Shown: in pieces, positions 18,101-18,832 of the stretch | Numbering within the stretch: the first letter of the stretch is position 1 | Layout: each line of letters opens with the position of its first letter | NCBI GenBank assembly: GCA_022013675.1 | Contig: JAKLPW010000312.1 | Location: 1-20,098, forward strand | Length of the DNA stretch: 20,098 bases | Reading direction: 5' to 3' | From: Anaerolineae bacterium | GTDB lineage: Bacteria; Chloroflexota; Anaerolineae; JAKLPW01 | The notes under the pieces: model-generated | What the model was told of the DNA's origin: nothing | Databases searched by the model: none | Seen by the model: only the letters and a program-made list of their open reading frames with translations | Translations under genes and position numbers: made by a program

Positions 18101-18832
18101 GTCGATTTGAGCGAAGGCGACTACGGCCTAAGCCTGTTGAACGATTGCAAGTACGGCCACGACATACGTGACAACGTCATTCGCCTGAGCCTGCTGCGCG
18201 GCCCGACCAGCCCGGACCCGGAGGCCGACCAGGGCGAGCACCAATTCCGCTACAGCCTGCTCCCTCACGCAGGGAGATGGGACGAGAGGACTGTGGCGGC
18301 GGCTTATGCCCTGAATGATCCGCTGATCCTGTGGACTAGTGGAGGATGGAGGACGGAGGATGGAGGACGGAGGACGGAGGATGGAGGACGAAGGATGGAG
18401 GGCGGAGGACGGAGGATGGAGGGCGGAGGACGGAGGATGGAGGATGGAGAACGGAGGATGGAGGGCGGAGGACGGAGGATGGAGGGCGGAGGACGGAGGA
18501 TGGAGGATGGAGAACGGAGGATGGAGGACGAGATTCCTGTATTTCGTCTCTCGTCTTTCGTCAAGGCGGATCTTCCAAGCGTGGTGATCGAAACCATCAA
18601 GCAAGCCGAGGATGGCCAGGGAATCATCGTGCGCCTCTACGAGAGCCAGCGCCGTCGGGGCGACCTGACCCTCTCGTACGGCTTCCCGCTGGCGCGTGCC
18701 TGGCGCACCAATCTTCTCGAGGAGAACCAGGAGGAGATTGAGTGTGCCGGTGACTGTCTGACAGTGCCCATCAAACCCTATCAGATACTCACCCTGCGGC
18801 TTGTGCCGCGCGCCAGGGCGGCCAGGTTCTAG
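15113..18832 (+). CDS. Cytoplasmic GH38 alpha-mannosidase (1239 aa) carrying two in-frame low-complexity tandem-repeat insertions.
   Basis: GTG start with GGAGGGG 4-6 nt upstream. No signal peptide. GH38 catalytic-domain hallmarks are present ([51 protein letters not shown]), plus central and C-terminal beta-sandwich regions. Confidence 0.88.
   Translation: [1239 protein letters not shown]
15755..16040 (+). repeat. 48-nt tandem repeat x~6 inside the GH38 CDS, encoding ([16 protein letters not shown])n. Each unit contains a CGCGCA-GGGA-TGCGCG hairpin.
   Basis: Near-identical units with variants QPDREGA / QLHHGGA / QMHHERA. The period keeps the reading frame. Confidence 0.8.
18339..18533 (+). 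repeat. Purine-rich (GGAGGA/TGGAGG/CGGAGG) tandem-repeat tract inside the GH38 CDS, encoding ([14 protein letters not shown])n. A 63-nt unit occurs x2 plus partial copies.
   Basis: About 195 nt that is >85% G+A on the coding strand. It contains dozens of GGAGG (Shine-Dalgarno-like) pentamers. Confidence 0.8.

Follow-up and report, generated by a model that had tools for sequence, protein, structure and literature searches.

In a 20,098-nt stretch of DNA from an Anaerolineae bacterium (hereafter the window), the C-terminal region of a GH38 α-mannosidase gene contains a tract packed with GGAGG pentamers. The locus raises the question of how such a tract came to lie within a conserved enzyme, and whether it acts on ribosomes or is only tolerated.

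The mannosidase gene and its first repeat

The gene is located at 15113-18832 on the + strand and encodes 1239 amino acids (NCBI MCG2769025.1, from an Anaerolineae MAG). The ORF scored above the gathering cut-offs with each of the four GH38 Pfam models, Glyco_hydro_38N, Alpha-mann_mid, Glyco_hydro_38C and Glyco_hydro38C2 (E-values 1e-87 to 1e-19). The nearest solved structures in the PDB comparison are Ams1-type α-mannosidases (E-value 1e-151), and the metal-binding motif HAHID shows no variation across the orthologue alignment. The product is assigned to the GH38 α-mannosidases, with the predicted N-terminal catalytic, middle, C-terminal and C-terminal β-sandwich domains all present.

A GGAGG ribosome-binding site at 15102-15106 (+ strand), 6 nt upstream of the GTG start, agrees with the initial annotation. 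GGAGG precedes 4 of the 12 genes in the window, and a match of at least 4 bases to the Shine-Dalgarno (SD) core precedes 8 of the 12. The gene belongs to a sugar-utilisation operon with LacI and ABC-transporter genes, so that its earlier description as a housekeeping-type glycosidase was overstated. The promoter and terminator scan gave nothing above chance, and there is no T-run 3' of the hairpin described below. Two minus-strand ORFs over the tract (158 and 107 aa) were rejected as genes, since a repeat without stop codons, read on the antisense strand of a conserved gene, accounts for both.

The first in-frame tandem repeat of the gene was found by TRF at 15749-16037 (+ strand), in the interval between the N-terminal domain and the catalytic domain, and has about 6 units of 48 nt (16 aa). 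The relatives have 0, 1, 2, 3 or 7 units at this place, and the number varies even in near-identical strains. Folding of the 48-nt repeat showed no unusual RNA structure.

The heptamer array and its linker

The GGAGG-rich purine tract was confirmed between two conserved segments of the C-terminal region, with coordinates 18341-18529 on the + strand. It consists of 27 tandem heptamers GGAGGAY (189 nt, 63 codons), found in the sequence and by TRF, and is in frame within the ORF. TRF reported a period of 7 at 18341-18530 (27.1 copies, consensus GGAGGAC, 81% matches) and a period of 63 at 18341-18527 (3.0 copies, 94% matches). The 63-nt units first described are therefore present as a higher-order period; the basic unit is 7 nt. 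With at most one mismatch, the 14-mer GGAGGAYGGAGGAY occurs 25 times in the 20-kb window, always within 18341-18529, against 0.06 occurrences expected from shuffles. Of the 57 GGAGG pentamers on the + strand of the 20-kb window, 24 (42%) fall within the tract; the SD-like pentamers noted before are thus present, and the "dozens" come to 24 by count. The array is 86% purine and might, as first suggested, form triplex or slipped DNA, but a pyrimidine breaks the purine run at every 7th base. None of the six frames contains a stop codon across it. Twelve ATGs occur in the tract, of which 7 are in frame, each 7 nt 3' of a GGAGG.

Within the array, 9 heptamers (21 codons) at 18397-18459 are repeated exactly, by string identity, at 18460-18522 (both + strand). 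The first 56 nt show variant heptamers in a non-periodic order. The junction of the two 63-nt copies is also found in contig L210 (596 nt) of an independent ENA assembly. This contig starts inside the array and is identical to 18413-19008 of the window save one SNP outside the array; over 118 nt of it, comprising at least 17 heptamers and the junction, no base differs between the two assemblies. The array itself is real, and its full copy number of 27, which comes from short-read assembly, is uncertain. Tandem repeats are a recognised cause of assembly errors (PMC6868369), the exact 2 x 63-nt block is close to the spanning limit of 150-nt reads, and L210 breaks within the array. Against these points stand the identity of the two assemblies across the 63-nt junction, the irregular order of the first heptamers, and a reading frame that continues unbroken into a conserved domain. 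It is considered very unlikely that short-read metagenome assembly produced the array, or its length, as an artefact.

The comparison set included 71 DNA loci and about 190 protein linkers, and no comparable array was found in any of these relatives. The closest orthologues, which are 87-96% identical outside the repeats, have 2.7-6.9 heptamers (GAAGGAC/GGAGGAC, peptide KTKDEGRRT) at exactly this site, as against 27 in the window. One KTKDEGRRT-type unit is placed opposite nine 7-aa units of the window in the orthologue alignment. The array is a microsatellite (VNTR): its short units lie head to tail far above chance, and their copy number varies between related genomes. The proposal of a lineage-specific repeat expansion is supported by this comparison, and, together with the 0-7 units of the 48-nt repeat, it makes a "double repeat-expansion hotspot" a fair description of the gene. 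The length difference to the closest orthologues is 52 codons (156 nt), which is no multiple of 21, and extra small indels must therefore be assumed.

The linker of the window has 98 aa and is the longest, the maximum among the about 190 relatives being 71 aa. Residues 1078-1146 have AlphaFold2 pLDDT values below 50 and no secondary structure, and the alignment to Ams1 (PDB) breaks at residue 1076 and restarts at 1164. The array lies in a hypervariable linker, predicted to be disordered, ahead of the last β-sandwich domain. The motif KDEGxRT is patchily distributed among the relatives. KDEGRRT-like linkers are retained down to about 66% identity in this otherwise hypervariable segment, which could point to selection instead of recurrent mutation.

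A scan for three consecutive GGAGGAY units across GTDB revealed at least 119 unrelated loci in many phyla. Among the matches listed, arrays of 3-37 units are found in many environmental bacteria, some with inverted partners; those in other phyla have non-homologous flanks and are mostly intergenic. A literature search on heptanucleotide repeats found only papers on phase variation in pathogens.

The inverted repeat and the proposed origin of the array

The array is followed at 18539-18562 (+ strand) by the pyrimidine-rich sequence GTATTTCGTCTCTCGTCTTTCGTC, which contains 3.4 heptamers (TRF period 7 at 18544-18562), encodes (V)FRLSSFV and forms the start of the coding sequence for the C-terminal β-sandwich. 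The inverted repeat in the window is 18520-18533/18549-18562. When this 3' arm is paired with the last heptamers without gaps, 14 positions are Watson-Crick, 6 are G·U and 1 is A·C. By its sequence, the tract makes up the 5' arm of an inverted repeat, a feature absent from the initial annotation, and this would account for the origin of the heptamers.

The same arrangement is seen in the closest orthologues: 6-24 nt beyond the heptamers lies CGTCCTTCGTCCTTCGTC, which is their reverse complement and natively encodes the peptide RPSSFV. The orthologue arms form hairpins of 18-29 bp, with stems that span about 26 positions and are 80-100% Watson-Crick. In L120-L124, the RNA hairpins have energies of -41 to -59 kcal/mol (z -3.9 to -6.4), and the corresponding DNA hairpins are as stable on one strand as on the other (z -9 to -14). 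In the orthologue L208, which is nested among hairpin-less relatives in an NJ tree of about 200 aa without support values, the palindrome is perfect over 29 bp and both arms include bases specific to the lineage. A coding sequence TCGTCCTTCGTC for SSFV is also present in orthologues without a hairpin, which indicates that the 3' arm is native. One arm is a near-exact reverse complement of adjacent, pre-existing sequence, as in template-switch inverted repeats.

Among the relatives the hairpin is patchily distributed. A Watson-Crick stem of at least 8 bp between a linker's own arms was found in about 12 of the 71 distinct linkers; the rest fold no better than codon shuffles, and fold z-scores are near 0 in most of the 71. 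The window's own fold is likewise no better than shuffles (RNA z -0.6, DNA z +1.0), and its hairpin has decayed. In the predicted fold, its 3' arm is still able to pair with the array as RNA through G·U pairs.

Taken together, the tract is probably an in-frame microsatellite expansion in a disordered linker, by which the 5' arm of an intragenic inverted repeat has outgrown its original size; replication template switching is the most likely process to have created that repeat. Template switching is a documented process, which gives perfect stems and compensatory-looking changes without selection (PMC8794818). At the start, the native (R)PSSFV coding sequence CGTCCTTCGTCCTTCGTC, which specifies the first strand of the C-terminal β-sandwich and has a built-in 7-nt period, would have been copied as its reverse complement into the unconstrained upstream linker. 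The product GACGAAGGACGAAGGACG would encode the antisense-derived peptide (K)DEGRRT and form a near-perfect hairpin of 18-29 bp. The loop-proximal GGAGGAC then expanded from about 4-5 to 27 copies in the lineage of the window, as the comparison with orthologues shows. As the downstream domain is kept in frame only by three-heptamer steps, viable growth is limited to multiples of 21 nt, and the array can be read as surviving growth by slippage in this way (21 to 42 to 63 to 126). The second copy of the exact 63-nt duplication would be the latest expansion step. The product would be a disordered spacer of 63 residues, rich in Gly, Arg, Glu and Met and tolerated by the enzyme. Its SD-like GGAGG content would be a by-product of the amplified unit and no selected signal; we infer that the array is neutral.

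On this origin, the array is probably no new functional device. The locus would show how template switching and then slipped-strand expansion build new protein sequence in a conserved bacterial enzyme: the linker peptide would be the antisense translation of the adjacent β-strand, amplified nine-fold afterwards. It would also be an example of a non-triplet microsatellite that persists in a coding region through three-unit growth, and a natural system in which to ask whether a high density of internal Shine-Dalgarno-like motifs does harm. Its value is that of a documented evolutionary example, and of a warning about repeats when MAGs are assembled and annotated, rather than of a new functional system.

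Alternative readings and known systems

The inverted repeat might instead be a selected mRNA hairpin before the last domain, serving to pause translation while the protein folds, or to control the processing or stability of the mRNA, and the expansion would modulate it by giving the 3' arm many pairing registers. The very stable hairpins of several orthologues agree with this reading, as does the G·U pairing left between the window's 3' arm and the array. Individual compensatory changes are also seen, GGAUGAAGG/CUUUCAUCC in L126 and GAAAGAC/GUCUUUC in L122; however, template switching mimics such changes without selection (PMC8794818). In the closest clade (L120, L121, L123, L126 and the window), sense-strand mismatches are G·U in 20 cases and A·C in 4, although these share a 3' arm by descent and are non-independent; over all stems the ratio is 24:21, with no sense-strand bias. 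The excess in the closest clade would fit a constraint at the mRNA level. Arm-swap tests for covariation were not convincing, with p=0.077 for the duplex energy and p=0.034 for the longest Watson-Crick stem in a pre-selected set, and heptamer arms pair across orthologues whatever their origin. Rfam gave no match at gathering thresholds, and a permissive E-value search gave one chance miRNA-like match (E 0.12). Moreover, the hairpin is missing from most of the 71 orthologous linkers, and the window's fold does not exceed shuffles. Covariation, an overall preference for G·U over A·C mismatches and conservation across orthologues, the marks of a selected structured RNA element, do not appear in these alignments and folds, and a selected hairpin is regarded as unlikely.

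A role in translation might also come from the pentamers themselves. Pairing of the 24 GGAGG with the 16S anti-SD sequence could stall ribosomes, as first proposed, and could also cause frameshifting or internal initiation at the 7 in-frame AUGs; internal initiation would yield a free C-terminal β-sandwich. The density of 24 motifs in 190 nt, the ideal SD spacing of the 7 in-frame ATGs among the 12, the use of GGAGG ribosome-binding sites by this organism, and a tract open in all frames, in which shifted ribosomes would read on, are all compatible with this proposal. SD-driven pausing has been questioned by later ribosome-profiling re-analyses. No slippery site was recognised in the tract. In the orthologues GAAGGAC predominates, which matches the SD sequence only weakly, and the SD character is thus not shared. 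SD-mediated pausing is disputed (PMC6066590), and SD-like motifs inside genes are generally under negative selection (bioRxiv 10.1101/278689), which accords better with a recent by-product, free of selection, than with a device. Such an effect of the pentamers appears quite unlikely. It is very unlikely that the pentamers, the in-frame AUGs and the residual G·U hairpin act together on ribosomes as a working translational device. If they did, ribosomes would be held between domains or would start internally, the C-terminal β-sandwich would be made separately or at a different rate, and gain or loss of heptamers would tune or switch the effect. A weaker version of this idea is a recurrent template-switch hotspot at the site, which would write KDEGRRT repeatedly into the linker in independent lineages. 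Gain or loss of a single heptamer could, in principle, also move the C-terminal domain in and out of frame, as in a contingency locus with phase-variable mannosidase activity. The unit lies in a CDS and its length of 7 nt is no multiple of 3; the array is long, with no stop in any frame, and near-identical strains differ in the 48-nt repeat of the same gene. But both available sequences are in frame and identical where both cover the array, the internal structure shows only steps in multiples of 21 nt, the imperfect units (81% matches at period 7) lower the slippage rate, and a cytoplasmic sugar-utilisation enzyme is unlike the surface and restriction-modification genes that are usually phase-variable. 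Phase variation is thus highly improbable. In-frame insertion of a mobile palindromic element (Rickettsia palindromic element, MITE/REP type) would explain palindromic sequence in a surface linker of a conserved enzyme, and GGAGGAY arrays are present in many other genomes, some with inverted partners, among the matches listed; however, the listed arrays of other phyla lack flank homology and are mostly intergenic. The 20-kb window contains no second copy, no terminal or target-site duplications were seen, and the 3' arm belongs to the native, conserved coding sequence and is found in hairpin-less orthologues as well. An RPE/MITE-type insertion is rejected on account of the native arm, and a mobile origin has next to no probability.

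Expansion of a locally seeded microsatellite, the preferred reading, can be compared with known systems. Intragenic tandem repeats and low-complexity regions in prokaryotic proteins form by proliferation of short repeats (PMC10120016, PMC6821194). The array resembles these VNTR loci in its head-to-tail short units within a CDS, its copy number varying between close relatives, its probably disordered surface segment, and its putative growth by slippage or unequal recombination; whereas its unit of 7 nt is no multiple of 3, only every third step is viable, and it would have been seeded by an inverted copy of the adjoining coding sequence. Template-switch quasipalindromes (Ripley model; Mönttinen & Löytynoja 2022, PMC8794818) likewise contain a reverse-complement copy of nearby sequence, with one-step perfect stems, of which the 29 bp of L208 may be an example, and multi-base "compensatory" changes without selection. 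Here, in contrast, both arms are translated, the antisense-derived KDEGRRT from RPSSFV would enter a protein linker, and one arm would later have become a microsatellite. Internal SD-like sequences (Li et al. 2012, as cited in PMC6066590; bioRxiv 10.1101/278689) are similar in having GGAGG within the CDS of an organism with GGAGG ribosome-binding sites. The density in the window is extreme compared with these (24 in 190 nt), and would come from repeat amplification and not from codon choice.

Simple-sequence contingency loci of pathogens include the 7-bp repeats at the H. influenzae hmw promoters and coding repeats of 4-5 bp in Neisseria and Haemophilus. They share with the array a non-triplet unit in or beside a gene, by which frame switching is possible in principle; the array differs in its imperfect units, its metabolic cytoplasmic gene, and the lack of an out-of-frame allele in two assemblies. 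Rickettsia palindromic elements (RPEs), which are mobile and dispersed and measure about 100-150 bp, insert in frame into conserved genes; in these, too, surface loops of housekeeping-type proteins tolerate the in-frame palindrome. In the mannosidase gene, by contrast, one arm is native, and the 20-kb window shows no dispersed copies. The cyanobacterial STRR heptanucleotide repeats are also tandem units of 7 nt and are intergenic; their sequence differs from that of the array, which is coding and appears to be locally derived.

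Heptamer array in the GH38 linker

The GH38 alpha-mannosidase ORF (15113-18832, + strand, 1239 aa) matched all four GH38 Pfam domains. Its protein is NCBI MCG2769025.1 from an Anaerolineae (Chloroflexota) metagenome-assembled genome, of which the 20,098 nt are an entire contig. Two LacI-type regulators, a solute-binding protein, two ABC permeases and a MalK-like ATPase lie 5' of the mannosidase ORF and a LigT-like gene lies 3' of it; these neighbours place the mannosidase in a sugar-utilisation operon. The LacI-family ORFs 7813-9003 and 8987-10243 adjoin each other, and the former matched only periplasmic-binding-like sensor domains, the LacI HTH model being unmatched. 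The ORF starting at 10069 shares ~175 nt with the LacI-family ORF 8987-10243, so its true start is probably more downstream. Three sizeable minus-strand ORFs (3358-5202, 614 aa; 5199-5753, 184 aa; 6162-7115, 317 aa) gave no Pfam match at E<=1e-5.

In Tandem Repeats Finder (TRF), 18341-18530 was an array of period 7 with 27.1 copies and the consensus GGAGGAC, on which a higher-order 63-nt period is superimposed (3 copies, 94% matches). The 14-mer GGAGGAYGGAGGAY occurs 25 times, always in the tract, vs 0.06 expected, and the heptamer motif was not found elsewhere in the 20-kb window. At 189 nt the array amounts to 63 codons; the reading frame is kept into the conserved C-terminal domain. These results confirm the GGAGG-rich repeat tract that the initial annotation had described in the C-terminal region of the CDS; the tandem 63-nt units proposed there are present as the higher-order period, whereas the basic unit is 7 nt. 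The purine-rich composition with many GGAGG was also borne out, with 86% purines and 24 GGAGG (42% of the + strand total of the window). No stop codons occur in any of the six frames of the tract.

The array was partly reproduced in an independent assembly. The ENA contig k141_132606 (assembly ERZ27247113; 596 nt) starts within the array and is identical to 18413-19008 except for one SNP outside the array; at least 17 heptamers are therefore reproduced, including the junction between two 63-nt copies. The absolute copy number is provisional, because this contig breaks within the repeat and the exact 2 x 63-nt block is near the short-read span limit; tandem repeats are a general assembly problem (PMC6868369).

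The array is located between Glyco_hydro_38C (residues 832-1037) and the C-terminal beta-sandwich (1157-1228) assigned by Pfam. Aligned to the Ams1 structure 7vqo, the protein matches up to residue 1076 and again from 1164. In the AlphaFold2 model of residues 827-1239, residues 1078-1146 lack secondary structure, score below 50 in pLDDT, and are bounded by a helix (1058-1065) and the first sandwich strand (1150-1152). The linker sequence is hypervariable in a comparison that covered 71 distinct orthologous loci at the DNA level and about 190 protein sequences; from ALNDP to IETIK it spans 98 aa in the window, the longest observed, vs 35-71 aa in relatives. Within the C-terminal region, conservation is highest at residues 963-993 (nt about 18000-18090), which likewise fall below a pLDDT of 50 in the model of the C-terminal part by itself; they probably need the absent catalytic domains or an oligomer partner.

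Expansion and growth of the coding repeats

Closest to the window gene are metagenome sequences from Chloroflexota/Anaerolineae, with 77% to 96% identity in alignable columns. Exactly at the array site they carry a single K/RTKDE/GGRRT copy, encoded by 2.7-6.9 GAAGGAC/GGAGGAC heptamers vs 27.1 in the window. GGAGGAC, the unit amplified in the window, is the loop-proximal unit in three orthologous loci (L120, L121 and L124). The short run in the relatives and this shared unit show that the tract is a lineage-specific expansion of a pre-existing run.

When each heptamer is reduced to its variable positions, the order along the array is T C T C C T C t / G C T G C T T a T / G C T G C T T a T / C. 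Its final 126 nt consist of two 63-nt copies without a single difference (18397-18459 and 18460-18522), and a duplicated 21-nt block lies within each copy. All recognisable growth steps are multiples of 21 nt, the shortest length giving both whole heptamers and whole codons. Growth probably proceeded by slipped-strand mispairing or unequal recombination between the 7-nt repeats, filtered by the need for the C-terminal domain to remain in frame. The net length gap to L120/L121, 156 nt, is not divisible by 21; a few small flanking indels must therefore have occurred as well.

The upstream repeat (15749-16037; 48-nt unit encoding 16 aa) has six units in the window. The copy number is zero in P0005 and more distant relatives, one in P0002-P0004, two in P0001, three in P0029 and seven in P0241, the last two being related mannosidases with 92-98% identity to the window. 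The description of the gene as a double repeat-expansion hotspot was therefore justified, since the 48-nt repeat varies from 0 to 7 units among relatives and the heptamers are likewise expanded. The 48-nt repeat is also length-polymorphic between these near-identical strains; P0029 and P0241 have neighbouring NCBI MAG accessions (MFH19...) and overlap mutually, which suggests two alleles of one metagenome or bin.

Other tandem repeats were observed in the window. The solute-binding protein ORF 10069-11829 has in-frame repeats at 10297-10343 (24-nt exact x2) and 10534-10618 (12/24-nt x2-5), within the N-terminal 220 aa before the SBP domain. Others are located at 6621-6658 (18-nt x2.1), 6790-6854 (15-nt x4.3) and 7499-7527 (9-nt x3.2), the first two within the minus-strand ORF 6162-7115, which has no Pfam match. 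Coding tandem repeats look common in the source genome. A 39-nt segment occurs twice (5857-5895 and 6051-6089) where two minus-strand ORFs leave a gap; the copies share 92% identity at a distance of 194 nt, both hold a short CACGAATT(R) tandem, and they may be paired operator-like sites.

Origin of the inverted repeat

In orthologues, the reverse complement of the purine heptamers follows 6-24 nt downstream (e.g. GACGAAGGACGAAGGACG ... CGTCCTTCGTCCTTCGTC). The resulting RNA hairpins have -41 to -59 kcal/mol (z -3.9 to -6.4); as DNA, both strands fold equally well (z -9 to -14). The ungapped stems comprise about 26 positions with 80-100% Watson-Crick pairing. The 3' arm codes for (R)PSSFV, the start of the beta-sandwich. 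Since TCGTCCTTCGTC / SSFV is also present in hairpin-less orthologues (e.g. L129, L135 and L140), the 3' arm is native, protein-constrained and intrinsically 7-nt periodic. As read from the sequences, the 5' arm is the derived copy, its peptide DEGRRT being the antisense reading of RPSSFV. The 3' arm of the window (18539-18562, + strand, GTATTTCGTCTCTCGTCTTTCGTC) is a period-7 run in TRF, and the inverted-repeat search pairs it with the array end; its capacity to pair with the array in multiple registers may have aided growth.

The hairpin could be a selected structure or a mutational product. Only about 12 of the 71 distinct linkers form an own-arm Watson-Crick stem of at least 8 bp, and the remaining ones fold no better than codon shuffles; the window's own fold does not surpass its shuffles either (RNA z -0.6; DNA z +1.0). 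Swapping arms between orthologues hardly weakens pairing, with p=0.077 for duplex energy and p=0.034 for the longest Watson-Crick stem in a pre-selected set, and clear own-partner specificity was found only in the orthologous locus L208. The stem mismatches comprise 24 G·U, 21 A·C and 11 transversion-type; selection on sense-strand RNA would favour G·U, whereas this balance is expected from transitions off a perfect DNA palindrome. In the closest clade the mismatches are mainly sense-strand G·U (20 vs 4), which is only a hint of a sense-strand signal because the 3' arm is shared by descent. The Rfam search gave no match, and no terminator-like T-run is present 3' of the hairpin.

Replication template switching is documented to produce perfect stems in one step, together with multi-base 'compensatory' changes (PMC8794818). 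An approximate NJ tree recovers the core hairpin clade (the window, L120-L124 and L126) as monophyletic, with L208 nested within hairpin-less relatives and L143, L172 and L209 distant; this patchy distribution is compatible with repeated creation or many losses. L208 (protein P0021) contains, inside the CDS (3225-3288), a palindrome whose 29-bp stem is perfect and whose loop has 6 nt; its DNA fold z is about -14 for either strand, and it encodes TKDEGRMTKALSFVIRPSSFV. Its nested position suggests that it arose very recently by template switching. Template switching accounts for the inverted-repeat data, and function is not needed.

Translation signals and wider occurrence

The GGAGG ribosome-binding site noted for the mannosidase is present, and SD-like sites are also used by other genes of the window. 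The tract contains 12 ATG, seven of them in frame. Every in-frame AUG lies 7 nt after a GGAGG, a spacing that makes internal initiation conceivable at the sequence level. SD-driven pausing, which had been expected for the tract, is a matter of dispute (PMC6066590), and genes are generally depleted of internal SD-like motifs (bioRxiv 10.1101/278689). The heptamers of the orthologues are mainly GAAGGAC; the strong SD character is therefore not conserved, and belongs to the unit that chanced to amplify.

A GTDB-wide scan found three consecutive GGAGGAY units at no fewer than 119 loci; about 2 are expected by chance in 596 Gb (rough calculation). The matches listed include Verrucomicrobiota, Planctomycetota, Acidobacteriota, Bacteroidota, Chloroflexota, cyanobacteria and other phyla. 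The listed (N)GAGGAY arrays (e.g. L003 6518-6776, L062 157-331 and L097 7024-7191; also L045, L066 and L119) have 3-37 units and are mostly at ORF ends or intergenic, and several are followed by a reverse-complement array nearby. They are not homologous to the mannosidase array, and may represent a widespread heptamer microsatellite/hairpin class.

The tract is a real, lineage-specific, in-frame heptamer expansion within a disordered linker, and the overgrown arm of an inverted repeat probably created by template switching. There is no evidence for it as a functional element; as an evolutionary example it is instructive, and it represents a variant of the known process of repeat-driven low-complexity growth (PMC10120016).
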